Below are positions 15,131-41,438 of a DNA stretch of 46,116 nucleotides, one piece after another (the stretch's first letter is position 1; every line of letters starts with the position of its first letter). Made by a program: the position numbers and the translations under genes. The notes below the pieces were generated by a model. It made no database searches. It saw only the letters and a list, made by a program, of their open reading frames with translations, and had not been told where the DNA came from. Source of the DNA: Bacteroidota bacterium (GTDB lineage Bacteria; Bacteroidota; Bacteroidia; M30B66); contig CANHCM010000002.1 in NCBI GenBank assembly GCA_947459155.1, positions 1-46,116 of the forward strand, written 5' to 3'.

Positions 15131-15158
15131 TTGTTAGATCAATTATTGAGTAAATTTG
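15131..15158 (+). promoter_or_regulatory. Putative promoter of the wHTH regulator gene
   Basis: TTG at 15131-15133, a 17-nt spacer, then TAAATTTG at 15151-15158 (exact TAnnTTTG), only 7 nt before the ATG at 15166. It is overlapped by a 7-bp inverted repeat (see findings). Confidence 0.35.
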
Positions 15159-15165
15159 CTACTCA

Positions 15166-15854: not shown

Positions 15855-16703
15855 ATGAATCAATCTGCAGATTCTTGGTCTAAAGTCATCCAGCCTAAAT
15901 CAAGTCTTCTTGACTTGAAATTAAAAGAGGTTTGGGAGTACCGCGACCTCATCATGATTTTCGTACGCCGCGATATTGTTGCTGTGTATAAACAAACGGT
16001 TCTCGGGCCACTGTGGTTCTTCTTGGGGCCATTGTTTACTGTGGTTACTTTCACCTTTGTCTTTAGAAATATTGCCAATATCTCCACCGAAAATATTCCC
16101 GCTCCAATATTTTACTTAGCAGGTACCACCTTGTGGAATTATTTCAGTGCGTCATTTACCGGAACATCAAATATTTTCGTAGCAAACGCCAGTATATTCG
16201 GTAAAGTCTATTTTCCACGTCTGGTAGCTCCTATCTCACAAATCATCTCAAATCTTTTAAAATTCTTTATTCAGTTATTGATGTTTTTTATTTTTTGGGT
16301 TTATTACTACTTAAATGGACAGATATCAATTAATATTTATGCATTATTGTTTCCGGTACTGGTCATTTTAATGGCTTTGATGTCGCTTGGAATTGGCATT
16401 ATCATTTCTTCAATGACCACGAAGTACAGGGATTTACAGAATTTTATTGGATTCGGACTTACGCTATTGATGTACGCAACACCCGTAATTTATCCGATAT
16501 CAGCCATCCCGGAAGCTTACCAGCCATTCATTCAATTTAATCCACTCTCCCCAATTATTGAGACATTCCGTTATGGATTTACCGGAGCCGGAACATTTAG
16601 TTGGGGCGCTTTAGCCTATTGCTCAGGATTCACTGCCGTTGTTCTGTTAATTGGACTGATCATGTTCAACCAAACCGAACGGACCTTCATGGATACGGTT
16701 TAA
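15855..16703 (+). CDS. wzm: ABC-2 type polysaccharide exporter permease (Wzm)
   Basis: 282 aa with six hydrophobic segments and the typical N-terminus (LKEVWEYRDLIMIFVRRDIVAVYKQTVLGPLWFFLGPL). It is followed directly by the ATPase. Confidence 0.87.
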   Translation: MNQSADSWSKVIQPKSSLLDLKLKEVWEYRDLIMIFVRRDIVAVYKQTVLGPLWFFLGPLFTVVTFTFVFRNIANISTENIPAPIFYLAGTTLWNYFSASFTGTSNIFVANASIFGKVYFPRLVAPISQIISNLLKFFIQLLMFFIFWVYYYLNGQISINIYALLFPVLVILMALMSLGIGIIISSMTTKYRDLQNFIGFGLTLLMYATPVIYPISAIPEAYQPFIQFNPLSPIIETFRYGFTGAGTFSWGALAYCSGFTAVVLLIGLIMFNQTERTFMDTV

Positions 16704-16727: not shown

Positions 16728-18029
16728 ATGTCGACAGTTATCAAGGTAGAAAATCTCTCAAAGCAGTATCGGCTTGGACTTGTAGGGACCGGCACGCTTC
16801 GCGATGACCTCATTGGTTGGTGGTACAACCTTCGAGGAAAAGAAAACCCAATTCACAAAATAGGCGAAGTGAACGACAGAACCCAGAAAAGTCAATCCGA
16901 CTATGTGTGGGCGCTGCAAAACATCAACTTCGAGGTCCAACAAGGCGATGTGATGGGCATCATTGGCCGAAATGGTGCCGGAAAATCCACACTGCTGAAA
17001 CTCCTCTCACGGGTAACCGCGCCAACCACAGGGAGCATCAAACTTAAAGGACGAATTGCCTCGCTATTGGAGGTTGGAACCGGGTTTCATCCAGAATTGA
17101 CAGGAAAGGAAAACATCTTTTTGAATGGAGCAATTCTCGGAATGCGCAAACATGAAATCAAAAGAAGATTTGACGAGATCGTGCACTTCGCGGGAGTTGA
17201 ACGATACATCGACACGCCGGTGAAACGATATTCTTCCGGAATGTACGTGCGCCTCGCATTTGGAGTGGCTGCTCACCTTGAATCTGAAATATTGATTGTC
17301 GATGAAGTACTCGCCGTTGGTGACGCTGAATTCCAAAAGAAATGTTTGGGAAAAATGGGCGACATCAACAAAGGTGAAGGACGGACCATTCTTTTTGTGA
17401 GCCACAACATGGCCTCTGTGCGCGAATTATGCAATAGAGCCATGATTCTCGAAAAGGGCACCGTGGCTCAAATTGGTCCTGTTGAAAAACTGGTACGCTC
17501 TTATGTTCAGAACCCCTTGCTGGTGAAAAGCGAAAACGATCTGATGGACGACGCGAAAAGCCGTCGTGGCCATGGGGAAGTTCGCTTCATTAAAATCGAA
17601 ATCAACAAAGGGCAAACTTTCCTGGATCCCGACAAAGAAATTGTCATCCAGTTTAACTGCAAAGTATTTAAACCCGTCTCCGAACTGTATTGCTACATGG
17701 CGGTGAAGGGGGTGCTTAATTCAGATTTTGTAACTTCAGTCGGACCGGCAAGAATCGCCGATATTCCACTCTCAGATGGCCAAGTTGTTCAGTTTACAAT
17801 GACTATTCCCGCCGGAACACTAAGAACAGGAATGTACCCTTTGTATTTCTGGATAGGTAAACTTAAAGAAGGTCCAATTGGAGAAAATTATCCTTATGAT
17901 GTAATCGACTCGGTGTATTACTTAAATATTACTTCCGATAAAAACGAAAGAGATTTGGGGTACAATCCCGACCAACCAGGGGGCTATTTCAATATGCCCG
18001 TTAAATTGTCTGATGTAACTTTCATTTGA
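16728..18029 (+). CDS. wzt: ABC polysaccharide exporter ATPase (Wzt) with an extra C-terminal domain of about 170 aa
   Basis: Walker A GRNGAGKST, signature YSSGMYVRLAF, Walker B ILIVDE and an H-loop VSHN. Residues about 265-433 lie beyond the NBD and look beta-rich, like the glycan-binding domain of O-antigen Wzt proteins. Confidence 0.9.
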   Translation: MSTVIKVENLSKQYRLGLVGTGTLRDDLIGWWYNLRGKENPIHKIGEVNDRTQKSQSDYVWALQNINFEVQQGDVMGIIGRNGAGKSTLLKLLSRVTAPTTGSIKLKGRIASLLEVGTGFHPELTGKENIFLNGAILGMRKHEIKRRFDEIVHFAGVERYIDTPVKRYSSGMYVRLAFGVAAHLESEILIVDEVLAVGDAEFQKKCLGKMGDINKGEGRTILFVSHNMASVRELCNRAMILEKGTVAQIGPVEKLVRSYVQNPLLVKSENDLMDDAKSRRGHGEVRFIKIEINKGQTFLDPDKEIVIQFNCKVFKPVSELYCYMAVKGVLNSDFVTSVGPARIADIPLSDGQVVQFTMTIPAGTLRTGMYPLYFWIGKLKEGPIGENYPYDVIDSVYYLNITSDKNERDLGYNPDQPGGYFNMPVKLSDVTFI

Positions 18030-19036
18030 TGCTAAACAACAAATCCATACTCATTACCGGAGGAACAGGCTCCCTCGGTAAAGCGCTAACCAAGCGAATT
18101 CTAACAGATTGGCCCAACGTAAAGCGGTTGGTCATCTTTTCCAGAGATGAACAAAAGCAATTTCTGATGGAGCAGGAATTTCCTGCTTCTAAATATCCCG
18201 CGATACGCTATTTTATTGGTGATGTTCGTGATTACGAGCGCCTCAAACGCGCATTTACCGGAGTTGATTATGTAATTCATGCCGCCGCCATGAAGCATGT
18301 CCACATCGCTGAATACAATCCCGATGAGTGCGTGAAGACCAACGTGGGTGGTGCCGAAAATGTAATCAGAGCCTCGCTGGAAACCAATGTCGACCGCGTC
18401 GTAGCACTGTCTACCGATAAGGCCTGTGCACCGATAAACTTGTACGGTGCAACTAAATTGACCTCTGATAAGTTGTTTATTTCTGCCAATAATATCAAAG
18501 GCGTGAATCCCATTCGCTTCTCTGTTGTTCGCTACGGAAACGTTATGGGCTCCAATGGTTCGGTAATTCCCTTCTTCCTGAAGAAGAGAAAAGAAGGAGT
18601 TTTGCCAATTACCGACCCTTCCATGACACGCTTTAATATTTCCTTAGATGAAGGCGTAAACATGGTTCTCTATGCACTTGAGCACGCATGGGGAGGAGAA
18701 CTGTTTGTTCCTAAAATACCATCTTACAGATTAGTGGATGTAGCCGAAGCCATTGGGCCTGAATGTGAAAAACCAATTGTTGGAGTGCGGCCGGGAGAGA
18801 AAATTCATGAGGAAATGATTACCTCCTCTGATAGCTACAACACCTACGATTTAGGAAAGTATTTTGTAATTCTCCCTTCTACACTCTCAAAGTGGAAGTT
18901 GGATGACTTTATCAAACAATTTGGAGCCACTAAAGTACCCATTGGTTTTAGTTATAATTCCGGAGATAACACTGAATGGGAGACAGTAGATTCACTCCGT
19001 GAACTGATTAAACAACACGTTGATGCTGACTTTTAA
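18029..19036 (+). CDS. pseB: UDP-N-acetylglucosamine 4,6-dehydratase (inverting), PseB/FlaA1
   Basis: The sequence aligns by eye along its whole length with Helicobacter/Campylobacter PseB as I recall them. Matching stretches include ILITGGTGSLGK, FIGDVRD, HAAAMKHV.IAEYNP.ECVKTN, LSTDKA..PINLYGATKL and FSVVRYGNVMGSNGSVIPFF. The ATG at 18029 overlaps the wzt stop. Confidence 0.9.
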   Translation: MLNNKSILITGGTGSLGKALTKRILTDWPNVKRLVIFSRDEQKQFLMEQEFPASKYPAIRYFIGDVRDYERLKRAFTGVDYVIHAAAMKHVHIAEYNPDECVKTNVGGAENVIRASLETNVDRVVALSTDKACAPINLYGATKLTSDKLFISANNIKGVNPIRFSVVRYGNVMGSNGSVIPFFLKKRKEGVLPITDPSMTRFNISLDEGVNMVLYALEHAWGGELFVPKIPSYRLVDVAEAIGPECEKPIVGVRPGEKIHEEMITSSDSYNTYDLGKYFVILPSTLSKWKLDDFIKQFGATKVPIGFSYNSGDNTEWETVDSLRELIKQHVDADF

Positions 19037-19045
19037 ATCGCCGCT

Positions 19046-20236
19046 ATGATACCGTACGGAAAACAACAGATTACACCCGACGACATCCAAGCAGTTGTTG
19101 AGACGCTACAATCTGATTTTCTCACGCAAGGCCCAAAAATCGCCGAGTTTGAATCTGCTTTCGCACAGTATATCGGGTGTAAATATGCCGTTGCCCTGGC
19201 CAATGGAACGGCGGCTCTTCACCTTTGTGCACTCGCACTGGATTTAAAACCCGGAAATAAAGTAATTACCTCTCCAATTACTTTCGCAGCTTCGGCTAAT
19301 TGCGTCCGTTATTGTGGAGCTGATGTGGTTTTTGCAGATATAGACCCGGATACATATCTTCTCGATATCAATAAGGTCAGGGCTTTATTGGAGGCTTCGC
19401 CCAAAGGTACTTATCAAGGCATCATTCCGGTAGATTTTGCCGGAAGAGCTGTCAATCTGGAAGAGTTTCGAAAACTTGCAGATGAATTCGACTGCTGGAT
19501 AATCGAAGATGCCTGTCATGCCCCGGGTGGTTTTTTTGAGGGTTCAAATGGAGCTAAACAAAACTGCGGAAATGGCAATTATGCCGACCTCGCCATTTTC
19601 TCCTTCCACCCTGTTAAGCACATTGCCTGTGGCGAAGGTGGAATGATTACTACCAACGATGAAGCCTTATACAAAAAGCTTCTGAAGCTTAGGACGCATG
19701 GAATCACACGCGAATCAGGCTTGTTTACCAATGCTCTCGACCTTGCATATGGATCTGAATCCGATAATACAGCCTATCCGGGTTGGTACATGGAAATGCA
19801 AGAGCTTGGCTTTAATTACCGACTCACCGACTTCCAAGCAGCACTTGGGTTATCACAATTAAATCGCGCTGATCAAGGTTTAGCACGACGTATCGAAATC
19901 GCACAGAAATATTCGAGTGTATTTGAAAAAGAAAGGGCCATTATTTCTCATTCTGGCCTTGTAAATGGCCACGCATATCACTTATATGTAATTTGCGTGG
20001 AGAAACGTGCGGAGTTATACAGTTATTTGCGATCGAAGCAGATTTTTTGCCAAGTCCATTACATACCTGTTCATCTACACCCCTACTATCAATCTTTTGG
20101 ATGGAAACAAGGCGATTTCCCCAATGCAGAGAATTATTACCGCAATTGCCTAAGTTTACCTATGTTTCCAACCCTCACTGATGAGGAGCAGGAGTTTGTG
20201 ATTAAAGAAATTAAATCATTCCTAAATCAGGCTTAA
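19046..20236 (+). CDS. pseC: UDP-4-amino-4,6-dideoxy-N-acetyl-beta-L-altrosamine transaminase (PseC, DegT/DnrJ/EryC1 family)
   Basis: 396 aa with IPYGKQ.I, LTQGP, and SFHPVKHI holding the PLP lysine, plus FNYRLTD.QAALGLSQL. It is adjacent to pseB. Confidence 0.85.
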   Translation: MIPYGKQQITPDDIQAVVETLQSDFLTQGPKIAEFESAFAQYIGCKYAVALANGTAALHLCALALDLKPGNKVITSPITFAASANCVRYCGADVVFADIDPDTYLLDINKVRALLEASPKGTYQGIIPVDFAGRAVNLEEFRKLADEFDCWIIEDACHAPGGFFEGSNGAKQNCGNGNYADLAIFSFHPVKHIACGEGGMITTNDEALYKKLLKLRTHGITRESGLFTNALDLAYGSESDNTAYPGWYMEMQELGFNYRLTDFQAALGLSQLNRADQGLARRIEIAQKYSSVFEKERAIISHSGLVNGHAYHLYVICVEKRAELYSYLRSKQIFCQVHYIPVHLHPYYQSFGWKQGDFPNAENYYRNCLSLPMFPTLTDEEQEFVIKEIKSFLNQA

Positions 20237-20282
20237 TTCGATTTATTTGACCGATTAAGTTGGCCATAGATGACAATTATTG

Positions 20283-21173
20283 ATGAACCCAATAGTTATC
20301 ATCTCGCCGAATGAAGCACTTTTGAAACTACACTTACCTGTGAGCGGAAAATCTAAATTGGGTCTGGGAACAGTACAGTTCGGTTTAGATTACGGGATTA
20401 GTAACGAACAAGGAAAAACTCCTTTTCAAGAGGTAATCGACATTTTATCTTTTTCCAATGCTCATCATATCAAGGTTCTCGATACCGCCAGCGCATATGG
20501 CGAAAGTGAATCTGTATTGGGCCGGTCTGGTGTTAAGCAGTTCGATATCATCACTAAGTTTCTGGCTAAGTCAGCAGACGAGTGTACTTCTCAAATGGCG
20601 AGCAGTCTGGCGAAATTAAATTGTGATCATGTATATGGTTTTTTATCTCATAACATCTCCCAATTAATCGACAATCCGTCAATTTGGTCAGCAATGCTGG
20701 AGCTCAAAGAGCAGGGAAAAACGAAGAAAATAGGTTTTTCTTTCAATTCGCTATCCGAAATTGAAGATGTGATGAAAGCCGGCTGGATACCAGACTTAAT
20801 TCAGATACCCTTTAACATCTTAGATTATCGATTTATGGATATTGCTAAGTATTTTAAGGCTAAAGGGACAGAGATACACTCGAGATCTGCTTTTTTGCAA
20901 GGGTTGTTTTTCTGTCAACCTCAGAATTTAAGTGATCATTTTAAGGATGTAAAACCTTTTCTACAAGAGCTTCAAAACTACTCGACTAATTTAGCAGGTG
21001 ATTTATTGAAGTATTGCACAGACAATCCGGTCATCGATAAGGTAATCGTAGGCGTTAATAATTTACCACAGCTCAAAGAAATTATTGTGGGACTTGAGAA
21101 TGCGGTTAAACTTGAGCTTGAATGCCCCAAACTTGGGGAGTCAATTTTAGCTCCCTATAATTGGCGATCGTGA
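20283..21173 (+). CDS. Aldo/keto reductase family oxidoreductase
   Basis: About 296 aa with LGLGTVQFGLDYG, DTASAYGESE and IGFS motifs of the AKR TIM barrel. The ATG at 20283 is preferred over the TTG at 20280. Confidence 0.72.
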   Translation: MNPIVIISPNEALLKLHLPVSGKSKLGLGTVQFGLDYGISNEQGKTPFQEVIDILSFSNAHHIKVLDTASAYGESESVLGRSGVKQFDIITKFLAKSADECTSQMASSLAKLNCDHVYGFLSHNISQLIDNPSIWSAMLELKEQGKTKKIGFSFNSLSEIEDVMKAGWIPDLIQIPFNILDYRFMDIAKYFKAKGTEIHSRSAFLQGLFFCQPQNLSDHFKDVKPFLQELQNYSTNLAGDLLKYCTDNPVIDKVIVGVNNLPQLKEIIVGLENAVKLELECPKLGESILAPYNWRS

Positions 21174-21178
21174 CGTTA

Positions 21179-21946
21179 ATGTTTGATTTAACAGGCAAGA
21201 ATGCCATTGTTACCGGAGGATATGGACACCTCGGAGCAGCAATGGTACATGGACTAAGATCGGTGAATGCTCATGTAATTGTTGCAGGAAGAAGCAAAGA
21301 AAAATTTGATCAGATCTTCGGAGCCGATCCACAAATAACATTTATTAAGTGTGACATTACTTCAAGTAATGATATCAATCATTTAATTTCTACTACTGCA
21401 GAACAGTTTGGCTCTGTGGATATTTTAGTGAACAATGCGGCTACGGTGGTAGGGAATAGCATTGAGCGAATGAATGACATGGATTGGGCAGATACACTGG
21501 AAGGGGTATTAGGTTCTGTTCATAAATGCATTAGAGCGGTAATACCCCAAATGAAAAAACAAGGTTCTGGTAAGATTGTCAACATCGCTTCGATGTACGG
21601 TGTAGTAAGTCCTAATTTCGACTTGTATACCGACATTGAAGAATTTACCAATCCTCCCCATTACGGAGCCGCAAAGGCAGCAATTATTCAACTCACCAAG
21701 TATTATGCGGCTCATTTGGGAAAATACAACATTCAGGTAAACGCAATTTCACCCGGTCCATTTCCTACGGAGAATGTTCAGCGTAAAAGTGAGCTGTTTG
21801 TCAGTAGATTGGCCGATAAAACGATGCTTAAACGCATTGGTGTACCTGAAAACATTATGGGACCAGTTGTTTTATTAAGCAGCAGTGCTTCAGATTTTAT
21901 AACAGGTCACAATTTAATTGTGGATGGAGGCTGGACAGCCTGGTAA
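21179..21946 (+). CDS. Short-chain dehydrogenase/reductase (SDR)
   Basis: NAIVTGGYGHLGAAM (TGxxxGxG-like), NNAA, and the catalytic YGAAKAA (YxxxK). I chose the ATG at 21179, because the track TTG at 21161 overlaps the AKR end. Confidence 0.85.
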   Translation: MFDLTGKNAIVTGGYGHLGAAMVHGLRSVNAHVIVAGRSKEKFDQIFGADPQITFIKCDITSSNDINHLISTTAEQFGSVDILVNNAATVVGNSIERMNDMDWADTLEGVLGSVHKCIRAVIPQMKKQGSGKIVNIASMYGVVSPNFDLYTDIEEFTNPPHYGAAKAAIIQLTKYYAAHLGKYNIQVNAISPGPFPTENVQRKSELFVSRLADKTMLKRIGVPENIMGPVVLLSSSASDFITGHNLIVDGGWTAW

Positions 21947-21949
21947 GTA

Positions 21950-22786
21950 ATGAAGATAGGAGCTATTATTCAAGCACGATTTGGGTCAAGTCGACTCCCT
22001 GGAAAAGTGCTCATGCCTTTGCCATTTCAAAATGGTAAACCTCTGCTCAAACATATTACAGATCGGATTAAAACCTCCAGATTAATTAATTATATCGGAA
22101 TAGCATCCTCCGAAAGAGAGGATAATCAGGCCATAGAGCAATTTGCTATACAAGAACAAGTGGATTGTTTTCGCGGCAGCGAAGAGAATGTTCTGAGTCG
22201 CTTTATTGCAATCATCAAAAAAGAGAAATTAGACTATGTAGTTAGGCTTACTGGAGATAACCCTTTAGTGGTAATGAATGAAATCGATCAGGCAATTGAG
22301 TATCACGTTCAAAACCAGTTTGAGTATACAAAATCGTCGGGTCTACCTCTGGGTTTGAACTTTGAAATAATTACGGCGGCTTCACTTTTAGCCTTAGAAA
22401 ATAAAAAACTCGAGAGGGAAGATTATGAGCATGTTACAATTTATTTTTCCAAAGCCACTCATGTAAATAAAGGATTGATTCAATTTGAACTCTCCAATGT
22501 GTCAAATGTTCGGTGCACAATTGACTATCCTTCTGATTTTGCAATGATGAACATGCTGATGCAAAGTATCGACCTTCAGAACCGAGATATTCTCAGTGAG
22601 TTAAGAAGAATCAGTGTTCATTCACCTTGGATCTTTGCAATAAATAGCGGAAACTTCCAGAAGAAACAATACAAGAATTTGAAAGAGGAGTTTGAAGACC
22701 TTAAGCTTATTTTGAAAGAGAATGAATTCAATTACACGTTAGATTTTCTATCAAAAAAATTTAATTCGACTGTAGCGGATAAATAA
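21950..22786 (+). CDS. SpsF-type cytidylyltransferase (CTP_transf_3), candidate CMP-nonulosonate synthetase
   Basis: MKIGAIIQARFGSSRLPGKVLMPL and RLTGDNPL are signatures of SpsF-like cytidylyltransferases. The gene lies inside the Pse module. It is not the NeuA-like canonical PseF type. Confidence 0.72.
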   Translation: MKIGAIIQARFGSSRLPGKVLMPLPFQNGKPLLKHITDRIKTSRLINYIGIASSEREDNQAIEQFAIQEQVDCFRGSEENVLSRFIAIIKKEKLDYVVRLTGDNPLVVMNEIDQAIEYHVQNQFEYTKSSGLPLGLNFEIITAASLLALENKKLEREDYEHVTIYFSKATHVNKGLIQFELSNVSNVRCTIDYPSDFAMMNMLMQSIDLQNRDILSELRRISVHSPWIFAINSGNFQKKQYKNLKEEFEDLKLILKENEFNYTLDFLSKKFNSTVADK

Positions 22787-22884
22787 AGTAGTCCAGACCT
22801 AAACACTTTGAAACTGTTATTCTCAACGATTTATCATTAAGTACTCCATAAACTTCGTCACTCAAGCCAAATAACGCACTTAAC

Positions 22885-23793
22885 ATGGAAAACAATAACG
22901 CGGTAACAAAAAATGAATTTGGATTTTATCGACTGAATAATATTCCTTCTCAAGAAGAACTTGATGAGTACTATCAAAAGAAGTATTTTCAAGAAGATAG
23001 AGCCATTTATTTTCATGAATATAGTCCGGAGGAGCTACTTTATTTCAGAAATAAAAACGAGCAGAAAGCGATTATCATTGAAAAGCTTTTTTCATCAAAA
23101 AATGAAAAGCCCCGATTGTTGGATGTAGGTTGTGGCGAAGGCTTTACATTGGCTTATTTTCATGAACGTGGCTGGGATGTAAGAGGTGTTGATTACAGCG
23201 AATATGGTTGCAAACAGCACAATCCTGAGATGCTCCCTTTTTTCAGTGCGGGCGACATTTACAAGCAGCTTGATTCTTTGCTTCAAACTCAAACAAAATA
23301 CGATTGTATTTGGTTGGACAATGTTCTTGAGCATGTGATTGATCCTGGTGGTTTGCTTCAAAAGCTAACTGTTTTGGCACATTCCGGAACGATACTTATG
23401 ATTGAAGTGCCAAACGATTTTTCTGTCATACAGAATAAATTGCTGGCTGATGGAAAAATAGACAGACCATTTTGGGTGGTTAGTCCCGACCATTTGTCGT
23501 ATTTTAATCTGGAAGGCTTAACCAACCTGGCTGAGAGCTGCGGATGGGAGAACAAGCACACAATTGCGGATTTTCCGATTGATTTTAACCTGGCAAATCC
23601 GTTTGCCAATTATGTGATGAATCGTGATGTGGGTAAAGGTGCTCACCAACAAAGAATATTTGTTGAGAATATAATGCATTCTGTTTCTCCCGATTTGACA
23701 AACCTTTACTACGCTGCAATGGCGCAATTAGGTCTAGGTCGTCAGCTAATCTCATTTTTAACACTTAAAAACTCAGACGATGAAAGAAATTAA
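22885..23793 (+). CDS. Class I SAM-dependent methyltransferase
   Basis: LLDVGCGEGF (motif I) and YDCIWLDNVLEHV (motif post-II/III). 302 aa. Confidence 0.75.
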   Translation: MENNNAVTKNEFGFYRLNNIPSQEELDEYYQKKYFQEDRAIYFHEYSPEELLYFRNKNEQKAIIIEKLFSSKNEKPRLLDVGCGEGFTLAYFHERGWDVRGVDYSEYGCKQHNPEMLPFFSAGDIYKQLDSLLQTQTKYDCIWLDNVLEHVIDPGGLLQKLTVLAHSGTILMIEVPNDFSVIQNKLLADGKIDRPFWVVSPDHLSYFNLEGLTNLAESCGWENKHTIADFPIDFNLANPFANYVMNRDVGKGAHQQRIFVENIMHSVSPDLTNLYYAAMAQLGLGRQLISFLTLKNSDDERN

Positions 23794-24526
23794 AGTACTA
23801 AGTGGTTCAACAGATGCCGAGAAGTCTAATCGAAACTTCATTGTTGAACAATTAAGAAATACCCCAATTCCCGATTCCGAGCTTGTCTTCAATCTTGGCC
23901 TTTATATGAATCGTCAAAGTTTGTCGAGAATTTTGTTTATGACAGAGTTGTATCGAAAAATTATTGATGTACACGGAGTTGTAATGGAATTTGGCGTGAG
24001 ATGGGGACAGAATCTAGCCCTTTTTTCCTCATTACGCGGAATGTTAGAACCTTTTAATTATAACCGAAAAATTATTGGGTTCGATACATTTCAAGGATTT
24101 CCTTCGGTAGATTCAAAAGATGGTTCAATGGTTTCTGTAGGAGATTATTCCGTTTCTGATAATTATAAGAACATCTTAGAATCCATTCTTGTTTACCATG
24201 AATCGGAAAGTCCGCTTTCTCACAAACGCAAGTTTGAACTTGTTGAGGGTGATGCTACCCTTACTGTTCATGATTATATCAAGAAGAATCCCGAAACAAT
24301 TGTTGCTTTAGCATATTTCGATTTTGATATCTATTCTCCAACAAAAGCATGTCTTGAGGCCATTTTACCAAGACTCACAAAAGGTAGCATTATTGCTTTC
24401 GATGAACTGAATTGTCCGGAATTTCCTGGTGAAACCTTAGCTGTTCTCGAAGTGCTTGGACTTTCAAAGTACGCCATAAAAAGAAGTCCTTTAAATCCTT
24501 TGATATCCTATTTAACAATTGAATGA
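23780..24526 (+). CDS. TylF/MycF-like (macrocin O-methyltransferase family) sugar O-methyltransferase
   Basis: GVVMEFGVRWGQN...IIGFDTFQGFP...FDFDIY...AFDEL matches the TylF-family pattern (vEcGVwrG...FDsFeGlP plus acidic metal ligands). Confidence 0.68.
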   Translation: MKEIKVLSGSTDAEKSNRNFIVEQLRNTPIPDSELVFNLGLYMNRQSLSRILFMTELYRKIIDVHGVVMEFGVRWGQNLALFSSLRGMLEPFNYNRKIIGFDTFQGFPSVDSKDGSMVSVGDYSVSDNYKNILESILVYHESESPLSHKRKFELVEGDATLTVHDYIKKNPETIVALAYFDFDIYSPTKACLEAILPRLTKGSIIAFDELNCPEFPGETLAVLEVLGLSKYAIKRSPLNPLISYLTIE

Positions 24527-25092
24527 TGAAGCGATTAGAGCACTATTCGTGTTTAAAATCAAAGGAATTCCATCATAAAGACTACAGTATTTGCAGTATA
24601 CGCGAACAAGACATCATGTCTATTCGAGTATGGAGAAATCTGCAAATTGATGTCCTTCGGCAAAAATCTTTAATTTCCGAGGAGCAACAGAAGAGATACT
24701 TTGATTCCGTGATTTGGCCCACGTTTGAGCAGGATAATCCTAATCAGATTTTAGTGAGTTTTTTTAAACATGGGGAGTTAATCGGGTATGGCGGTTTAGT
24801 TCATATTTCGTGGGAGGACAAAAGAGCGGAGGTGTCATTTTTAGTAGATCCAGAACGTCACATTCCTGAAATTTATGAGGAGGATTTTAGTGCGTTCCTA
24901 ACATTAGTGGGCAGCATGGCTTTTTCAGACCTTGGGTTTTATCGCATCTTCACGGAAACTTACGATATTCGAGAACTGCATATATCCATTTTAGAGAAAA
25001 ACAATTTTCAACGCGAAGGAATTATGCGTAAACATGTGTTAATCCATGGAGAACGCATTGATTCAATAATTCATGGATGCATAAACGAATAA
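24523..25092 (+). CDS. GNAT N-acetyltransferase, PseH-like
   Basis: 189 aa with an IRVWRN motif near the N-terminus, like PseH (WRN), and a GNAT core (GYGGLVHISWEDKRAEVSFLV...FYRIFTETYD.N). It lies within the Pse module. Substrate assignment is inferred. Confidence 0.6.
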   Translation: MMKRLEHYSCLKSKEFHHKDYSICSIREQDIMSIRVWRNLQIDVLRQKSLISEEQQKRYFDSVIWPTFEQDNPNQILVSFFKHGELIGYGGLVHISWEDKRAEVSFLVDPERHIPEIYEEDFSAFLTLVGSMAFSDLGFYRIFTETYDIRELHISILEKNNFQREGIMRKHVLIHGERIDSIIHGCINE

Positions 25093-25094
25093 CA

Positions 25095-26999
25095 ATGCTG
25101 CAGAATAAAAGAATTTTTGTGAGTGGTGGTGCCGGAGTAATCGGCCAAGAACTTATACCAAAATTACACGCGCTTGGAGCTGTAGTTTTAGTTGGAGATC
25201 TAAAACCTCGTCCAGAGCATTTCGCAGAAGAGGTATTGTATTTTCAGGGCGACCTTAACTACTTGACAAAGGATATTTTAGAAGATTTTTCGCCTAATAT
25301 CTTTATTCACCTTGCCGCTACTTTTGAAAGATCTACGGAATCTTATTCATTTTGGGAAGAGAATTTTTGGCACAACGTAAGATTAAGTCATCACCTTGCC
25401 ACATTAGTAAAAGACTTACCTAGCGTTACGAAAGTAATTAACGCCTCCAGTTATTTAATTTATAATCCAGAGCTTTATAGCTTTTCCGAGCCGCAGTCTG
25501 CCCCTTATTCTTTAAAGGAGTCTGATCCAATTTATCCGCGAAATCTCACTGGCATGGCTAAATTGGCTCATGAAATTGAAATTCGTTTTCTTCAAAGTTT
25601 TGCCGGCGAAAGCAAATCATACATTAATGCCAGAATTTACAGAGGATATGGAAAGGGTTCCCGTTGTGTTATTTCGCGCTGGATTCGTTCATTATTAAAT
25701 GGAGAGGAAATAAAAGTTTATCGAAAAGAAGGTATCTTCGATTATATATATGCCGGTGATACAGCCGAGGGGCTAATTCAACTTGCGGCGAGTAAAGAGG
25801 CCTCTGGAATTATTAACTTAGGAACTGGTAAAGCACGCAAAGTTCAGGATGTAGTCGATATTCTTGGTAAGCATTTTCCGGGCATGCGCTATACAGAACA
25901 CGAATCTGATATTCCGTTTGAAGCTTCTCAGGCCGACATTTCACTGCTTAAATCTCTCACTCATTGGGAACCAAAGAATACTCTAGAGAGCGTAATCCCA
26001 GAAATTATTGAGTACGAGCGGGCTCACATTGAACAGGTGACTAATCCACCTGGGAATGTTATGCTTTCCTCTGTTTCGAAGAAAATACCCTTAGCTCAAT
26101 CAATAAAATTCGCGTGCAACAAGCTTGACAAGGATGTATTACTCGTAGGTGCCGATTTAAATGAAAATGCCTTAGGGCGATATTTTTGTGATGATTTTTG
26201 GTGCATGCCAAGAATTAATCACCTCGATATAAAAGACTTAATTGACTATAGTAAGTCAAAAGGCATCAAGGCAATTATTCCAAGCAGAGATATGGAATTG
26301 CCTTATTATGCCAAACATCGAGTAGAACTCCTAAAGAGCGACATAAAGGTAATGGTGTCTAGCCATGAAACGGTAGAGATTTGCTTGGATAAGTTGAAAT
26401 TTTACGAAGAGTTAAGTTCACACAATTTCCCTGTTATCCCAACAAGTTTAAGTTTGCATTCTAAAGACGCCGATCGTTGGGTCGTTAAGGAGCGATTTGG
26501 TTCCGGCTCTGCAGGATTAGCCGTTAATGTAGCTGAAGCGGAAGCTTTGGCTTTTGCTGAAAATCTTGAAAATCCGATTTTCCAGCCATTTATTCAGGGC
26601 GTTGAATACAGTGTTGATGCTTATGTTACCAAGTCTGGGAAAGTAAAGGGAATCGTATGTCGAACAAGAGATTTAGTGGTGGGTGGTGAATCTCAGATTA
26701 CTTCAACTGTAAGTAATCCAGAAATTGAAACTTTGATTGAGTCCATTTTAGGGAATTATGGTTTTTATGGCCATGTGGTTTTTCAATTAATTGAGACGTC
26801 CGATAAGAAACTTCACATTATTGAATGTAATCCGAGGTTTGGTGGTGCTTCTACGCTTTCGATAGCCGTTGGATTAGATTCGTTTTATTGGTTTTTACTG
26901 GAATCGATTGGACAGAATGTAGATAAATATCCATTTAATAAAGGGTATTCACATAAAAGGCTGGTGCGTTATGCTTCTGATATTTTTGTAAAAATCTGA
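25095..26999 (+). CDS. Fusion protein: N-terminal NAD-dependent epimerase/dehydratase-like Rossmann domain plus C-terminal ATP-grasp ligase domain
   Basis: The N-terminus has IFVSGGAGVIGQE and a YxxxK-like segment (LTGMAKLAHE). The C-terminal half has WVVKERFGSGSAGLAV and IIECNPRFGGAS, typical of ATP-grasp enzymes. It is a single 634-codon frame with no internal stop. Confidence 0.75.
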   Translation: MLQNKRIFVSGGAGVIGQELIPKLHALGAVVLVGDLKPRPEHFAEEVLYFQGDLNYLTKDILEDFSPNIFIHLAATFERSTESYSFWEENFWHNVRLSHHLATLVKDLPSVTKVINASSYLIYNPELYSFSEPQSAPYSLKESDPIYPRNLTGMAKLAHEIEIRFLQSFAGESKSYINARIYRGYGKGSRCVISRWIRSLLNGEEIKVYRKEGIFDYIYAGDTAEGLIQLAASKEASGIINLGTGKARKVQDVVDILGKHFPGMRYTEHESDIPFEASQADISLLKSLTHWEPKNTLESVIPEIIEYERAHIEQVTNPPGNVMLSSVSKKIPLAQSIKFACNKLDKDVLLVGADLNENALGRYFCDDFWCMPRINHLDIKDLIDYSKSKGIKAIIPSRDMELPYYAKHRVELLKSDIKVMVSSHETVEICLDKLKFYEELSSHNFPVIPTSLSLHSKDADRWVVKERFGSGSAGLAVNVAEAEALAFAENLENPIFQPFIQGVEYSVDAYVTKSGKVKGIVCRTRDLVVGGESQITSTVSNPEIETLIESILGNYGFYGHVVFQLIETSDKKLHIIECNPRFGGASTLSIAVGLDSFYWFLLESIGQNVDKYPFNKGYSHKRLVRYASDIFVKI

Positions 27000-27000
27000 A

Positions 27001-27699
27001 ATGAAGTACGGCGCAGTTATTTTCGATTTAGATGATACTCTTTACAGTGAAGCCACTTTTGTAGAGAGTGGTTTTCTAGAAGTTTCGAAATTCCTTGCGA
27101 GTGTTTCTGATTTGGCTGTTGGGGTTGATGAAATTTATGGAAAGATGCTAGATTCTTTGCGTCTTCACGGAAGAGGAAAGGTATTTAATGATGTGTTGGA
27201 ATGGCTTCAACTTAATGTTCAGGAATATCTTCATACCCTCATTTACATCTATCGAAATCATTCTCCTAGAAATATCAGTCTCGATAGCGAGATGAAAGAA
27301 CTATTGATAGATCTTAAAAATCATCAATTAAGGATTGGTATCGTAACAGACGGTACATACGTGACTCAGCGAAACAAGACGGATATTCTTTTTCATGATT
27401 TAATTCTGGATTGTATTATCCACACAGATTCTCTCGGAGAGCACCATTGGAAGCCATCGACTGAGCCTTTTAAGGTGGCGTCAAAACTTCTTGGTGTTAA
27501 TCCTAATCAAGCAGTATACATTGGAGATAATCCGGTTAAAGATTTTAAGGGGCCAAGATGTATTGGCATGCATGCAGTTTGGTGGAATCCTTATCATAAG
27601 TCATTTAATTTTTCAGATGAATTAAGTAAGCCTGATTTTATTGTAAGCAATATTCAAATGCTTCGAAAACACTTAATTGGAAGTCAAGATGATCAATGA
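27001..27699 (+). CDS. HAD-superfamily hydrolase (subfamily IA-like)
   Basis: Motif I VIFDLDDTLY (DxDxT), motif II IVTDG, and motif III/IV K...YIGDNPVKD. Confidence 0.8.
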   Translation: MKYGAVIFDLDDTLYSEATFVESGFLEVSKFLASVSDLAVGVDEIYGKMLDSLRLHGRGKVFNDVLEWLQLNVQEYLHTLIYIYRNHSPRNISLDSEMKELLIDLKNHQLRIGIVTDGTYVTQRNKTDILFHDLILDCIIHTDSLGEHHWKPSTEPFKVASKLLGVNPNQAVYIGDNPVKDFKGPRCIGMHAVWWNPYHKSFNFSDELSKPDFIVSNIQMLRKHLIGSQDDQ

Positions 27700-28759
27700 A
27701 CTGAAAATTGGAAATACGCTGGTGGGAAAGAATCACCCGGTATTTATTATCGCGGAATTATCTGCCAACCACAATCAACAGCTCGATGTAGCGCTCGAAA
27801 CAGTTAAGGCAGCGAAACGGTGTGGCGCGAATGCCATCAAGTTGCAAACGTACACTCCCGATACTATCACCCTAAATTCCTATCGGCCGGAGTTTAAATT
27901 GACCCAGGGAACCATTTGGGATGGCAAATTCTTGTACGATCTATACAAGGAGGCCTACACGCCCTGGGAATGGCATAAGACTCTTTTTGATGCGGCGATT
28001 TCAGAAGGTTTGGAAGTCTTTTCCTCACCATTTGACCTAAGCGCGGTTGATTTTCTGGAGACACTTAATGCTCCTGCCTACAAAATCGCCTCCTTTGAAA
28101 TTAATGATATACCGTTGATCCGCAAAGTGGCTAAACTGCAAAAGCCAATTATAATTTCCACGGGTATTGCTCGTCCTGAAGACATAGAATTGGCTTTGGA
28201 AACCTGTTTCAGTGAAGGCAACCACCAGGTAGTTTTGCTAAAATGTACCTCTAGTTATCCTGCACCAATAGAAGAAGCCAACATGGTAATGATACCTGAT
28301 TTAACCCAACGATATCAGGTACTGTCTGGTCTATCTGATCATACGCTTGGAATCACAGTGCCTGTTGTCGCAACGACCTTGGGAGCCTGTGTCATTGAGA
28401 AACACTTTATTCTGGATCGCAGCATTGGAGGGCCTGATGCTTCATTCTCATTGGATGAGAAGGAGTTTACTGCTATGGTTAATGCAGTTCGGGAGGCCGA
28501 AAAAGCAATAGGTGTAGTCGATTATTCGCTTTCTCAAAAGCAAATCAATTCACGGGAGCATTCTCGCTCTTTATTTGTCACTGCAAATATTCAGAAGGGT
28601 GAGGAATTTTCAGTGCATAATATAAGATCTGTGCGCCCAGCCAATGGTCTGCATACTAAGTATTTCGATAAGATACTTGGAAAGAAAGCATTAAAGGATT
28701 TAGAATTTGGCGAACCGCTTAGAGAGGAACATATTGAAGGATTTTCAATAAATGAGTAG
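27689..28759 (+). CDS. pseI: Pseudaminic acid synthase (NeuB family, PseI) with a C-terminal SAF domain
   Basis: FIIAELSANHNQ, AIKLQTYTPDTITLNS, YKIASFE, ISTGIA, LKCTSSYPAP, GLSDHTLG, VIEKHF and SVRP..GLH are collinear with Campylobacter PseI (NeuB3) as I recall it. The ATG at 27689 overlaps the HAD 3' end by 11 nt. Confidence 0.9.
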   Translation: MINELKIGNTLVGKNHPVFIIAELSANHNQQLDVALETVKAAKRCGANAIKLQTYTPDTITLNSYRPEFKLTQGTIWDGKFLYDLYKEAYTPWEWHKTLFDAAISEGLEVFSSPFDLSAVDFLETLNAPAYKIASFEINDIPLIRKVAKLQKPIIISTGIARPEDIELALETCFSEGNHQVVLLKCTSSYPAPIEEANMVMIPDLTQRYQVLSGLSDHTLGITVPVVATTLGACVIEKHFILDRSIGGPDASFSLDEKEFTAMVNAVREAEKAIGVVDYSLSQKQINSREHSRSLFVTANIQKGEEFSVHNIRSVRPANGLHTKYFDKILGKKALKDLEFGEPLREEHIEGFSINE

Positions 28760-28854: not shown

Positions 28855-30258
28855 ATGAGCAGCAGTCGTATAGGAATTTTTCCGGGGTTTAATACATCTA
28901 CCCACGATCCAATTCACAAAAGAATTATCGAATGGCACGATGCTACACCGTATAATTATCATGAGGCGCTAAGAGCAGTGTCATTGAGTAAGAGGGAGCT
29001 GATTCAGCTTAAGATTGTAAAACTCTATTATTTCCTGAAATTGTTAGTAAAGCGGGATCGAACTGCTGGACTGTATTACAAGAATGTAAATATTCTGCAC
29101 TCAGTTGTAGAGCTTTCTGTCGTTTACACTAAAGATGGTCGGTTCGATAGGTTTTCCAGAAACACATTCAATTGTCTCAATACCGCAATTCAGGTAACAT
29201 ACAATGCTCAACGGTTAGTTCAAGAGAATCGGGTTGCAATTGTAATTGGTGGTGATGAGGCCTTTGTTTATGGCTCCGTTTGGGGGCAGATTGCAGCGCA
29301 GAACAACATTAAGCATTTTCATTTAAAACAAAGAGAAGGTTTTGTATCTGCGTTTCCTTTCGACCTTAAGACGCTTTATGCAGGACCTAAATATTATAAA
29401 TTAGAGAATGATGCCAAAGCAGTGACCAACAATAATCTGCTTGCGGAAATTAGAAATGTAATTGAGCAGGGTAATTATACGTATATGCGGAAAGCGAGTC
29501 ATGACAATGATAAAGACTTGTCATACTTAGATGGCGCCTTTGTATTGTATCTGCATGACTTTTTAGATAGCCCCGGAATATATGGCCAGGTTTTCTTTTT
29601 CGATTTGTGGGAATGGATTGAGATGGCAATTAAAACATCAATAGACCGGAAACAAAAATTGGTCATTAAAATTCATCCAAACGTTTCCGAGAAAAATAAA
29701 CTGGCTATCGCACGTTTGAAAAGAAAGGTAGATAGACATAAAAACGTAATTGTTACAAACGATCACTTTTCACTTTACGCATTTCGAGAGCGAATTAAAG
29801 GCGTGCTCACGATCTTCGGAACGGTTATGGCCGAAGCAAGGCAGTTCAATATTCCTTGTCTTTCAGCTGCGGTTAATCACCCATATTTGTGTGGAAACCT
29901 TGTTCCAAAAATCAATTCGAAAGCAGATTATATTACAAAACTAAATCAGTTTTTTAGTGGCGAGAAATTAATGAATGATTCTCAGGCAAGTGATCCCGCA
30001 TTGACCTATTATTTGGTTAACTACGAGCCATTCTTTAAGAATAGTTTATTTGAAGGTCTGCCATACGACGACATGAGTATGGATTTGTTCAAGAGACTGC
30101 ATCCAACACTCGAGAATGTTGACGGTTATGGAATTCATGAAAGAAGGAGAGTTTTCTTGTATTCTTCTGAAACAAAAGAGTATATCGAAGATTATTTAAG
30201 TGAAAACGAAGAGGCGCTTAAGAAACGTTTAGAACATCTCCTGAATAGTTTTAACTAA
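28855..30258 (+). CDS. Hypothetical GT-B-like protein (Capsule_synth/KpsS- or sialyltransferase-like motifs), candidate nonulosonate transferase
   Basis: 467 aa. It has AFVLYLHDFLDSPGIY (residues about 228-243) and LVIKIHPN (HP at about 274-275). These are followed by VLTIFGTVMAEARQFNIPCL, which resembles the C-terminal half of capsule KpsS/KpsC-type and HP-motif keto-sugar-acid transferases. The function is inferred, not demonstrated. Confidence 0.4.
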   Translation: MSSSRIGIFPGFNTSTHDPIHKRIIEWHDATPYNYHEALRAVSLSKRELIQLKIVKLYYFLKLLVKRDRTAGLYYKNVNILHSVVELSVVYTKDGRFDRFSRNTFNCLNTAIQVTYNAQRLVQENRVAIVIGGDEAFVYGSVWGQIAAQNNIKHFHLKQREGFVSAFPFDLKTLYAGPKYYKLENDAKAVTNNNLLAEIRNVIEQGNYTYMRKASHDNDKDLSYLDGAFVLYLHDFLDSPGIYGQVFFFDLWEWIEMAIKTSIDRKQKLVIKIHPNVSEKNKLAIARLKRKVDRHKNVIVTNDHFSLYAFRERIKGVLTIFGTVMAEARQFNIPCLSAAVNHPYLCGNLVPKINSKADYITKLNQFFSGEKLMNDSQASDPALTYYLVNYEPFFKNSLFEGLPYDDMSMDLFKRLHPTLENVDGYGIHERRRVFLYSSETKEYIEDYLSENEEALKKRLEHLLNSFN

Positions 30259-38918: not shown

Positions 38919-40069
38919 GAATAGTACATGTGATTCCCAGCTTATTTGCTGGAGGAGCTGAAATTTTAATGTCGAATATGGCCATAGCTTCGGCTAAGCT
39001 TGGCCATTCAGTATTGGTTTGCTGTTTGTTTCCTCCTGATCAAAGCTGGAACAAACAACAGTTATGTATAGAGTTAGAAAAACACTGTGAAGTTGTTGTT
39101 TTGGAAGAGAGTATTCATTTTAGATTCCTTCGGTCTCCAAAGCTCAATAACAAGAAGTTCATTCAGAAAATTATTGAATTTAATCCCGATATTATTCATT
39201 CACATTTATACTTATCGGAGCTTCTTGTTTATTCGCATATTTTTAAAAGTTGCAGGTATTTTAGTCATGGGCATGATAATATCATTCAATTAAATCCATT
39301 CCGAATTTCATCCTTATTCAACAAGTCGAAACTCACAAATTGGTGGGAGAGAAGATGGTTGCTTTCTCAGTATTCTAAAGCTAAACCCAACTTTATAGCG
39401 ATTTCAAAAGATGTTGAAGCCTTTTTCAAAAGAGTTTTGCCATCTAATCGATTTAAAACTTATTATTTACCCAATGCAATTAACGTTGAAAGATTCGCCC
39501 ATCAACGTGTTTATGAAAATACGGCTAAACCGTTCAAGTTGATTTCAATCGCGAATCTGGTACCTAAAAAGAATCACACGTATTTAATTGATGTTGCTAA
39601 AGTGCTTGTAGACAGAAAACTAGATGTTCGTGTAGAAGTATTGGGAGATGGTCCTTTAATGGGTGAATTACAAGCCAAGGTCAAGCAGAATGGGTTAGAG
39701 GATGTGTTTTTCTTCTTAGGAAGTGTGGGTGATGTGTCTAAGCATCTTAACAATGCTAATCTTTACGTGCACCCTGCGTGGTATGAACCTTTTGGCCTGG
39801 TTCTTCTGGAGGCCATGGCCAGTGGTTTACCGGTAGTTTGCTTGGACGGCTATGGAAATCGTGAGCTCATGTTTGAGGGGCAAAATGGTTACATGCTTCC
39901 AGTTGATACCTCCGCAGATTTATTTGCCGATAAAATTGAGTTTTTCATGAAAAATCCAGGCTCTTTAAAAGAGCAGGGTTTGTGGGCAGCAAATTTTGCA
40001 AAGCGTTATGACATTAACCTTTATGCCCAGAAATTATGCGATCTCTATTTGCAATCTAAAGAAAGCTAA
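38915..40069 (+). CDS. GT4 (GT-B, retaining) glycosyltransferase
   Basis: GTG start overlapping the previous stop (GTGA). It has an N-terminal GGAE motif and a C-terminal EPFGLVLLEAMASGLPVV (EX7E). Confidence 0.9.
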   Translation: MRIVHVIPSLFAGGAEILMSNMAIASAKLGHSVLVCCLFPPDQSWNKQQLCIELEKHCEVVVLEESIHFRFLRSPKLNNKKFIQKIIEFNPDIIHSHLYLSELLVYSHIFKSCRYFSHGHDNIIQLNPFRISSLFNKSKLTNWWERRWLLSQYSKAKPNFIAISKDVEAFFKRVLPSNRFKTYYLPNAINVERFAHQRVYENTAKPFKLISIANLVPKKNHTYLIDVAKVLVDRKLDVRVEVLGDGPLMGELQAKVKQNGLEDVFFFLGSVGDVSKHLNNANLYVHPAWYEPFGLVLLEAMASGLPVVCLDGYGNRELMFEGQNGYMLPVDTSADLFADKIEFFMKNPGSLKEQGLWAANFAKRYDINLYAQKLCDLYLQSKES

Positions 40070-41431: not shown

Positions 41432-41438
41432 TATGGTT

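Follow-up and report, generated by a model that had tools for sequence, protein, structure and literature searches.

A GNAT-Fold Protein in the Position of PseG in a Pseudaminic Acid Gene Block of a Bacteroidota Polysaccharide Locus

Gene Content of the Pseudaminic Acid Block

We analyzed a stretch of 46,116 nucleotides from a Bacteroidota bacterium (contig CANHCM010000002.1 of assembly GCA_947459155.1; hereafter, the window), in which positions 18026-28759 hold a block of pseudaminic acid (Pse) biosynthesis genes that has no recognizable pseG and that includes, in the PseG slot, the gene for an atypical GNAT-fold protein, here called GNAT_w. Pse is a virulence-linked bacterial mimic of sialic acid. 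The six enzymes of its pathway, among them PseG, are regarded as an invariable set, which serves as a drug target and also for the chemo-enzymatic synthesis of CMP-Pse. The block is composed of 11 co-directional open reading frames (ORFs) on the forward strand, which mostly overlap or lie at most 43 bases apart, the two largest gaps being of 95-98 bases. Three of the encoded proteins exceeded the NCBIfam equivalog cut-offs: PseB, the inverting UDP-GlcNAc 4,6-dehydratase (18026..19036; TIGR03589, 494.7 bits, cut-off 407.75), the aminotransferase PseC (19046..20236; TIGR03588, 466.2 bits, cut-off 423.5), and the pseudaminic acid synthase PseI (27677..28759; TIGR03586, 503.4 bits, cut-off 340.25). 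An earlier note on this DNA had listed these three as clear orthologues, and at the level of sequence these matches establish the predicted functions of the core.

The search for the other canonical enzymes gave a different result. None of the window ORFs scanned with NCBIfam matched the PseG model (TIGR03590), the best hit of a verified PseG in a tblastn search of the window had an E value of only 0.13, and a profile hidden Markov model (HMM) built from 49 PseG sequences, run with its filters off against the six frames of the 46-kb window, detected neither PseG nor a remnant of it (best E = 1.3), which agrees with the earlier statement that the window has no PseG. The window cytidylyltransferase gave no match to the PseF model TIGR03584 at E ≤ 1e-5, and its orthologue from Fodinibius, scanned at E ≤ 0.01, scored 16.8 bits with this model (cut-off 205.7). 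As for a canonical PseH, the only GNAT of the block reached just 25 bits with TIGR03585, for which the cut-off is 93.1. The seven genes that had been described as interrupting the canonical set are indeed present; however, they do not constitute one tailoring set but two independent recurrent modules.

The architecture is recurrent. The protein in which an SDR-like domain (SDR, short-chain dehydrogenase/reductase) is fused to an ATP-grasp domain is found unchanged, beside the same neighboring genes, in contigs belonging to three public assemblies, and an identical gene order was found in a metagenome-assembled genome (MAG) of a pond Bacteroidetes, with protein identities that range from 68% (the SpsF-type protein) to 83% (the 467-amino-acid protein encoded after pseI). 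This indicates that the arrangement is not due to chance and answers positively the question, raised in the earlier note, of whether the gene order recurs elsewhere. In the literature that we searched, no description was found of a Pse pathway without PseG, of its replacement by a GNAT, or of this architecture.

GNAT_w and PseG in Related Loci

For comparison with the block, we used two sets of 80 loci each, one from genomes, with the SpsF-type protein as the seed, and one from metagenomes, with GNAT_w as the seed. The commonest cluster has the order PseB-PseC-AKR-SDR-SpsF-PseG::PseH-PseI (AKR, aldo/keto reductase); it includes every canonical function and has no ATP-grasp, HAD or methyltransferase gene. 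The presence of PseG and GNAT_w was scored in the loci that encode PseI plus PseB or PseC, 102 in all. Intact PseG alone was found in 49 of them, GNAT_w alone in another 49, neither protein in 4, and both intact in none; two further loci carry a fragmentary PseG, one without GNAT_w (L080) and the other with it (L123). Within the SpsF-seeded loci, which are the unbiased subset, this exclusion corresponds to a Fisher p = 8e-13, a figure inflated by the shared descent of the loci.

GNAT_w is encoded directly after the cytidylyltransferase, as PseG is. Five loci encode it as a fusion with a PseH-like GNAT, a counterpart of the PseG::PseH fusion that is common in the survey; in other loci, its companion is an unfused PseH-like GNAT, a formyltransferase or an ATP-grasp protein. 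Examples of genomes with GNAT_w clusters are Runella sp. SP2 (CP031030.1), Flavobacterium sp. CP096136.1, the Hymenobacter isolates of L067, L077, L081, L082 and L084, and MAG GCA_027483445.1. When PseG-type and GNAT_w-type clusters of Hymenobacter were compared, their PseI proteins were 84% identical and their PseC proteins 77%, which indicates that the slot was exchanged inside related clusters. No other recognizable hydrolase was detected in the PseG-less loci of the simplest type. Mutual exclusion, a shared slot and a shared fusion partner are the classical signature of non-orthologous displacement, and this cluster-level comparison makes GNAT_w the best, albeit unproven, candidate for a non-orthologous replacement of PseG.

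In three loci (L123, L138 and L157), PseG seemed at first to accompany GNAT_w, but this was discarded, since only N-terminal pieces of PseG are present there, extending in any frame to about residue 183 of approximately 330. In L138 (15-599) and L157 (8-247), the piece immediately precedes the GNAT_w module; in L123 (1757-2122), the only one of the three that encodes PseI plus PseB or PseC, it lies between PseC and PseI, around 2.4 kb upstream of GNAT_w. These pieces may be what is left of PseG or, alternatively, a domain that recurs on its own. In two loci without PseG and without GNAT_w (L065, 7961-8749; L171, 2587-3360), we observed an AP_endonuc_2 protein (a xylose-isomerase-like TIM barrel) encoded between the cytidylyltransferase and PseI/NeuB. 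This protein is possibly a third occupant of the PseG slot, so that the release of UDP may have been solved in several ways.

GNAT_w itself (24523..25092, forward strand; PF13420, Acetyltransf_4) has a confidently predicted GNAT fold, with an AlphaFold2 predicted local distance difference test (pLDDT) score of 96.8. In Foldseek searches, the model matched SpeG and PseH with E values of about 6e-12, and PseH of Helicobacter pylori (4RI1) was among the best matches. The proteins of the GNAT_w family form a tight group, with a median of 150 bits to one another and 28 invariant residues, whereas in the comparison with PseH-like domains any match was obtained in only 184 of 1,584 cases, with a median of about 40 bits. 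Moreover, the loop between β4 and α3 that holds the pyrophosphate of coenzyme A (CoA) (Q/RxxGxG/A; RGxGxG, motif A) is missing in 17 of 17 GNAT_w proteins, where an acidic, glycine-free loop stands in its position, as was also examined in an alignment with SpeG, and kept in all 44 of the aligned PseH-like domains. The earlier label of a PseH-like GNAT was therefore right as regards the fold, but given its low score with the PseH model, its distinct family and the missing motif A, the protein is not a PseH.

These observations could also be read in a more conservative manner, in which the pseG gene lies at another place in the genome, the cluster is just one gene short, and GNAT_w is an ordinary tailoring acyltransferase that uses an unusual donor or is an O-acetyltransferase. 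Our search for PseG covered the 46-kb window, and the confident GNAT fold together with the structural match to H. pylori PseH would suit such a role. It is more difficult to reconcile with this idea that intact PseG and GNAT_w are found together in none of the 102 loci, that PseG is otherwise always in the cluster, and that the anticorrelation persists within genera in which the flanking genes are closely similar. The lack of the CoA pyrophosphate loop also argues against an ordinary acyltransferase, as does the fact that the PseG-less loci of type B already have a second, canonical PseH-like GNAT, sometimes fused to GNAT_w. On balance, we consider an unlinked pseG rather unlikely. The earlier note had attributed the release of UDP to either an unrecognized enzyme or a gene located elsewhere in the genome, a proposal that is supported by these results.

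The AKR, SDR and SpsF-Type Genes

Three consecutive genes on the forward strand follow pseC. They encode an AKR (20280..21173; PF00248), a classical SDR of the adh_short_C2 type (21161..21946; PF13561/PF00106), which scored 151 bits with PRK09186 (PtmA-type), below its cut-off, and an SpsF-type cytidylyltransferase (21950..22786) with a CTP_transf_3 domain (PF02348) over residues 5-173 followed by a C-terminal extension. The best PDB match of the latter was 6oew, annotated as 'Cytidylyltransferase', and the PDB sequence searches with the AKR gave no functional lead. Of the 80 SpsF-seeded genome loci, 67 have these genes side by side, and approximately 49 of the loci with this trio are otherwise plain PseB-PseC-PseG::PseH-PseI clusters, without ATP-grasp or HAD genes; in Fodinibius sediminis, for example, the trio stands beside a verified PseG (TIGR03590, 189 bits, cut-off 154). 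Conversely, the GNAT-ATP-grasp-HAD set was found without AKR and SDR in Runella sp. SP2 and in loci L093, L126, L141, L154 and L168, where the cytidylyltransferase is a canonical PseF (280-346 bits). Thus, the SpsF-type enzyme travels with the AKR and the SDR and not with the acyl machinery. Among the relatives of the window AKR, a natural fusion of an AKR with an SpsF-type (CTP_transf_3) protein was also identified (P0331). In addition, two natural fusions of a PseH-like GNAT (Acetyltransf_3) with a cluster-type AKR were observed (P0312 and P0386), which connect the AKR with Pse biosynthesis itself.

In Acinetobacter baumannii, EpaA (CTP_transf_3::Aldo_ket_red) and EpaB (adh_short_C2) convert Pse to 8-epi-Pse, as shown by nuclear magnetic resonance (PMC12053666). 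According to Pfam, this same set of domains is encoded together in the window. Since the three genes are locked together, are present in plain PseG::PseH loci and encode EpaA/EpaB-like domains, we read them as a module for CMP activation and for oxidation and reduction at C8, rather than for the synthesis of an acyl donor; by analogy, the trio probably activates and epimerizes the sugar. The activating role that the earlier note had given to the SpsF-type enzyme is supported and is in agreement with the genetics of SpsF in Bacillus subtilis, where the protein is required at a stage that follows the synthesis of the sugar, as expected of an enzyme that activates it with CMP (PMC7439481).

The earlier note had instead proposed that the AKR and the SDR shape a hydroxy-acyl donor. 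In a version of this idea, both enzymes, and possibly the SDR-like domain of the fusion protein, would prepare an unusual acyl group and the normal stereochemistry of Pse would be kept. The reduction of keto-acids is common among AKR and SDR enzymes, and the likeness to EpaA/EpaB is made by domain family and gene association rather than by sequence. Nevertheless, the AKR-SDR-SpsF genes occur in the approximately 49 loci in which a PseG::PseH fusion is the sole N-acyl enzyme, the ATP-grasp module dispenses with AKR and SDR in Runella and the five loci mentioned above, and the AKR is naturally fused to a cytidylyltransferase. For these reasons, a role in making the acyl donor appears improbable to us, and the activation and epimerization of the sugar is the probable function that we retain for the trio.

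The sequences of EpaA and EpaB were also sought in phages, and they were not found in the phage collection searched. A tblastn search of a phage collection with the AKR, the SpsF-type protein and P0331 gave only unrelated matches, one of which is a true kdsB on Acinetobacter chromosomal contigs labeled as phage, and a scan of IMG/VR revealed two unfused relatives. One record of the phage collection, L172 (CAKLQH020000011.1, 'Acinetobacter phage MD-2021a'), carries msbA, lpxK, kdsB and holB, and looks like a bacterial chromosomal contig.

Methyltransferases, ATP-Grasp Fusion and HAD Phosphatase

The second module comprises four genes in addition to that of GNAT_w, all on the forward strand. The first of them encodes a class I SAM methyltransferase (22885..23793; Methyltransf_23, PF13489, 72.6 bits) and recurs upstream of GNAT_w in many loci. 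The next one (23780..24526) had been described as encoding a TylF-like O-methyltransferase. The product is indeed methyltransferase-like and is conserved, with orthologues in other loci that score around 350 bits, but its similarity to TylF and Methyltransf_24 is weak (24.7 and 21.1 bits in Pfam, both below the gathering scores).

The gene that follows GNAT_w (25077..26999) encodes a fusion of an extended-SDR, epimerase-like domain with a PylC-like ATP-grasp (PF01370, PF21360 and PF02655). Its ATP-grasp half matched PylC-like_N (PF21360) and ATP-grasp_3 (PF02655), and PRK12767-type models with 154 bits, below their cut-off. The PDB sequence matches of the fusion protein were MoeE5/GalE and 2pn1, and for the ATP-grasp half these searches provided no functional lead. 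The epimerase-like half (25077-26036) keeps the GxxGxxG motif; in contrast, the catalytic tyrosine of YxxxK is replaced with threonine (36) or cysteine (6) in all 42 homologues. This loss makes a conventional epimerase unlikely and does not favor the name of 'epimerase' used previously for this domain. Judging from its sequence, this half may have become a pseudo-enzyme, or it may serve to bind the nucleotide sugar and hold it for the ligase.

The last gene of the module encodes a HAD-IA phosphatase (27001..27699; PF13419; TIGR02253-like, 106.6 bits, below the cut-off), and its end overlaps the start of pseI by 23 bases. Among the 41 metagenome loci with enough sequence downstream of GNAT_w, the ATP-grasp gene follows in 35 and the HAD gene comes next in 33. 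In the minimal arrangement, that of L141 (PseB-PseC-GNAT-fusion-HAD-PseI-PseF), the GNAT, the fusion and the HAD genes lie exactly in the position of PseH plus PseG, and Runella sp. SP2 has the tailoring module with only PseB, PseC, PseI and PseF. From these arrangements, we infer that the module formed by the methyltransferases, the GNAT, the fusion protein and the HAD takes the place of PseH and PseG. That the ATP-grasp, the HAD and the methyltransferases form an N-acyl tailoring set had been suggested before; these genes do travel together, and the idea is reasonable. A role of the HAD as a nonulosonate-9-phosphate phosphatase (NANP/KDN-9-P type) was rejected, given that Pse is a 9-deoxy sugar and that the HAD tracks the ATP-grasp gene.

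The overlap between the HAD gene and pseI could also suggest that another protein of the locus frees the sugar from UDP, either the HAD, together with a pyrophosphatase, or the 467-amino-acid protein, which may be GT-B-like, its low-confidence model being weakly similar to UDP-GlcNAc 2-epimerase/NeuC-type GT-B folds. However, the PseG-less type-B loci L018, L028 and L056 have no HAD, and it is the presence of the ATP-grasp gene, and not the absence of PseG, that the HAD follows. Regarding the second protein, its model is poor (pLDDT 57, TM score about 0.25), and its relatives are found in 13 loci that contain PseG and are linked to Capsule_synth/KpsS-like transferases. We rate this possibility as very improbable and, among the proteins of the locus, favor GNAT_w for the release of UDP.

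Other potential tailoring genes were observed in the survey. In L042, L049, L050 and L014, a small SDR (~221 aa), a metallophosphoesterase (~232 aa) and an unfused ATP-grasp protein (~313 aa) are encoded between SpsF and PseI; this alternative N-acyl set is combined with PseG in three of the loci and with GNAT_w in one. Clusters with GNAT_w may also include a formyltransferase and a PIG-L-type deacetylase (L017, 11857-13237), a formyltransferase alone (L053, 11377-12234), or a KASIII::ACP fusion and a second KASIII (L022, 11960-14278), a variety that points to a wide N-acyl repertoire.

The Polysaccharide Locus Surrounding the Block

The block belongs to a polysaccharide locus of approximately 31 kb that is bounded by HrpB and RdgB and has a G+C content of 0.37-0.40, compared with about 0.48 upstream. 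The assignment of the organism to Bacteroidota is backed by a Bacteroidetes protein similar to FtsL and by the genomes closest to it. The locus starts with gmd and fcl, followed by the genes for an UpxY-type antiterminator and an HTH protein, Wzm, Wzt with its Wzt_C domain, the Pse block and the 467-amino-acid orphan; further downstream are two GT11 glycosyltransferases, two FkbM-type methyltransferases, several GT2/GT4 glycosyltransferases, one epimerase and an acetamidino set. At its head (14613-15729), the UpxY-family antiterminator precedes a winged-helix protein of 187 aa (ArsR/PaaX-like), and this pair is kept in a related MAG locus (L004). Outside the locus, between dnaG and hrpB, there is an ORF of 525 aa (8190-9767) without a family match.

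Wzm (15855..16703, forward strand) is an ABC-2 permease of the polysaccharide exporter type (NF050109, KpsM-like and ABC2_membrane matches), and Wzt (16728..18029, forward strand) is an ABC ATPase with a C-terminal Wzt_C domain (NF050108/TagH-like, PF14524), whose stop codon overlaps the start of pseB. No Polysacc_synt or Wzy match, and hence no Wzx/Wzy, was detected among the window ORFs scanned with Pfam or NCBIfam. The presence of the Wzm permease and of a Wzt ATPase with Wzt_C identifies an ABC-transporter-dependent polysaccharide locus. In such systems, the carbohydrate-binding Wzt_C domain recognizes the residue that terminates the chain. The Pse derivative could be a terminal cap; Wzt_C and the two downstream FkbM-type methyltransferases were noted in this context.

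The 467-amino-acid protein (28855..30258, forward strand) is a soluble orphan with an 'IKIHP' motif and without Pfam, NCBIfam or PDB sequence matches. Only three homologues were retrieved in a search of 5.8 billion proteins, and an iterative HMM reached Capsule_synth/KpsS-like proteins, with relatives in the 13 PseG loci and in GNAT_w loci. This link indicates that the protein is probably a Pse transferase. It was discarded as the missing hydrolase because of its poor model (pLDDT 57), the weak GT-B matches, the Capsule_synth link and the relatives in PseG loci.

The locus also has, at its opposite end (40056-43917), an acetamidino set that the earlier note did not list. It comprises an AglZ/HisF2-family acetamidino modification protein (40056..40823, reverse strand; NF038364, 345 bits, cut-off 310), a HisH-type glutamine amidotransferase subunit paired with HisF2 (40808..41431, reverse strand; TIGR01855, 221.7 bits), and a WbuX/PseA-family N-acetyl sugar amidotransferase (42775..43917, forward strand; TIGR03573, 288.1 bits, cut-off 203.2).

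Proposed Pathway and Its Implications

The explanation that we favor is that, within a Wzm/Wzt ABC-transporter-dependent polysaccharide locus of a Bacteroidota bacterium, this region supplies a nucleotide sugar, and that its three parts (the core, the activation and epimerization module, and the tailoring and release module) lead to a CMP-activated, non-standard Pse. We assign to this explanation, taken as a whole, a probability of roughly 0.6. PseB and PseC would convert UDP-GlcNAc to UDP-4-amino-4,6-dideoxy-L-AltNAc. The catalytically altered SDR-like domain of the fusion protein would hold this UDP-sugar while the ATP-grasp domain ligates, at the expense of ATP, a non-acetyl, phosphorylated carboxylic acid to its 4-amino group; subsequently, the HAD would remove the phosphate from the acyl group and the two methyltransferases would methylate it. 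The identity of the acyl group is a guess: it may be 3-phosphoglycerate, converted to glyceroyl and then to O-methylglyceroyl, groups that would fit known Pse variants. GNAT_w, with a fold related to PseH and no acetyl-CoA loop, would perform the UDP-release step of PseG or make it unnecessary, and PseI would condense the released hexose with phosphoenolpyruvate. The trio would take the place of PseF, with the SpsF-type transferase making the CMP-sugar; following the EpaA/EpaB analogy, AKR and SDR would oxidize and then re-reduce a hydroxyl of CMP-Pse, most likely that at C8, to yield an 8-epi-Pse derivative, the SDR having an EpaB/PtmA-like role. In addition, the WbuX/HisH/HisF2 set may convert an N-acetyl group to acetimidoyl, on the Pse derivative or on another sugar. 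The earlier idea that the block makes a non-standard CMP-nonulosonate is thus supported.

A broader proposal is that GNAT_w represents a new enzyme class, derived from PseH and without acetyl-CoA binding, that releases 2,4-diacylamino-2,4,6-trideoxy-L-altrose from UDP or bypasses this step and has thus displaced the GT-B hydrolase PseG, in a PseG-independent pathway widespread in Bacteroidota and environmental metagenomes. Its corollary is that 8-epi-Pse, so far known only from A. baumannii, is the usual nonulosonate of many Bacteroidota. We put forward the two together as tentative, with a confidence that falls somewhat short of even.

Several points weigh against the proposed pathway. To our knowledge, the hydrolysis of a UDP-sugar by a GNAT-fold protein is without precedent. 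The PseG counts are counts of clusters, and an unlinked pseG could reside elsewhere in the host genomes; the kinship of the loci inflates the contingency statistics; and the 'half PseG' that recurs in three loci could still have a function and need not be a remnant. The proposed 8-epimerization is linked to EpaA/EpaB by domain families and by the association of the genes, and the analogous SDR/oxidoreductase pair of Campylobacter jejuni, PtmA/PtmF, was reportedly assigned by Schoenhofen in 2009 to a different, upstream step.

If true, a natural PseG-independent route would represent a new catalyst for nucleotide release, in a fold, that of GNAT, to which this activity would be new, and it would explain why homology screens call many Bacteroidota Pse clusters "incomplete". 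If the trio is an 8-epimerization module, 8-epi-Pse is predicted to be common in environmental Bacteroidota, which would bear on glycan typing, on Pse-specific antibodies and on the prediction of phage receptors. The ATP-grasp/HAD/methyltransferase set provides concrete candidate enzymes for installing non-acetyl N-acyl groups.

Comparison With Known Systems

Compared with the canonical PseB-PseC-PseH-PseG-PseI-PseF pathway of C. jejuni and H. pylori, the window shares PseB, PseC and PseI at the equivalog level, and the same substrate logic is expected, from UDP-GlcNAc to a nine-carbon acid and a CMP-sugar. In contrast, it has no PseG, no PseF, in whose stead there is an SpsF-type CTP_transf_3 enzyme, and no canonical PseH, and the sole GNAT of its block is devoid of the CoA loop. 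With respect to PseH (H. pylori 4RI1), GNAT_w has the same fold (TM score about 0.75) and is present in the same clusters; however, it belongs to a separate family without RGxGxG, and while PseH-like domains can be found alongside it, its occurrence is anticorrelated with that of PseG.

The closest parallel for the trio is EpaA/EpaB (SBS22546.1/SBS22545.1; PMC12053666), with which it shares an identical Pfam set (CTP_transf_3, Aldo_ket_red and adh_short_C2), a likeness of domain family and gene association only. The adjacency of the genes, the association with Pse production and the fusion seen in P0331 are common to both. They differ in that the window has three separate genes inside a Pse cluster, whereas EpaA has the opposite domain order, is borne on a prophage and acts on top of the PseF of the host. 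The SpsF of the B. subtilis sps pathway (PMC7439481) has the same CTP_transf_3/'SpsF' subfamily annotation; unlike the window, that pathway retains a PseG-like SpsG, makes legionaminic acid (Leg) and has no AKR/SDR partners. A trio of an oxidoreductase, a cytidylyltransferase and an SDR beside a nonulosonate pathway is also found in ElaA/ElaB/ElaC of A. baumannii KL49, associated with 8-epi-legionaminic acid (PMC13656337), and in PtmF/LegF/PtmA of Campylobacter and Plesiomonas. The logic proposed for them is the one that we propose for the window (CMP activation, C8 oxidation, and reduction), but the parts are non-homologous. ElaA and PtmF are Gfo/Idh/MocA-type oxidoreductases of ~325 aa (~326 aa in the case of PtmF) and not AKRs, ElaB is PseF/NeuA-like and not SpsF-type, and both trios act on Leg; hence, ElaABC were rejected as direct homologues of the window trio.

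Regarding the N-acyl groups, the acetimidoyl and glyceroyl Pse of Tannerella forsythia that the earlier note had mentioned is correct, the structure being Pse5Am7Gra (PMC5378307); the enzymes that install its non-acetyl N-acyl groups were stated to be unknown in that work. Relative to Pse5Am7Gra and to the di-O-methylglyceroyl Pse of C. jejuni, a non-acetyl N-acyl group, an acetimidoyl group and methylation are all plausible for the predicted product of the window: the ATP-grasp, the HAD and the two methyltransferases, together with WbuX/HisH/HisF2, are the basis of this likeness.

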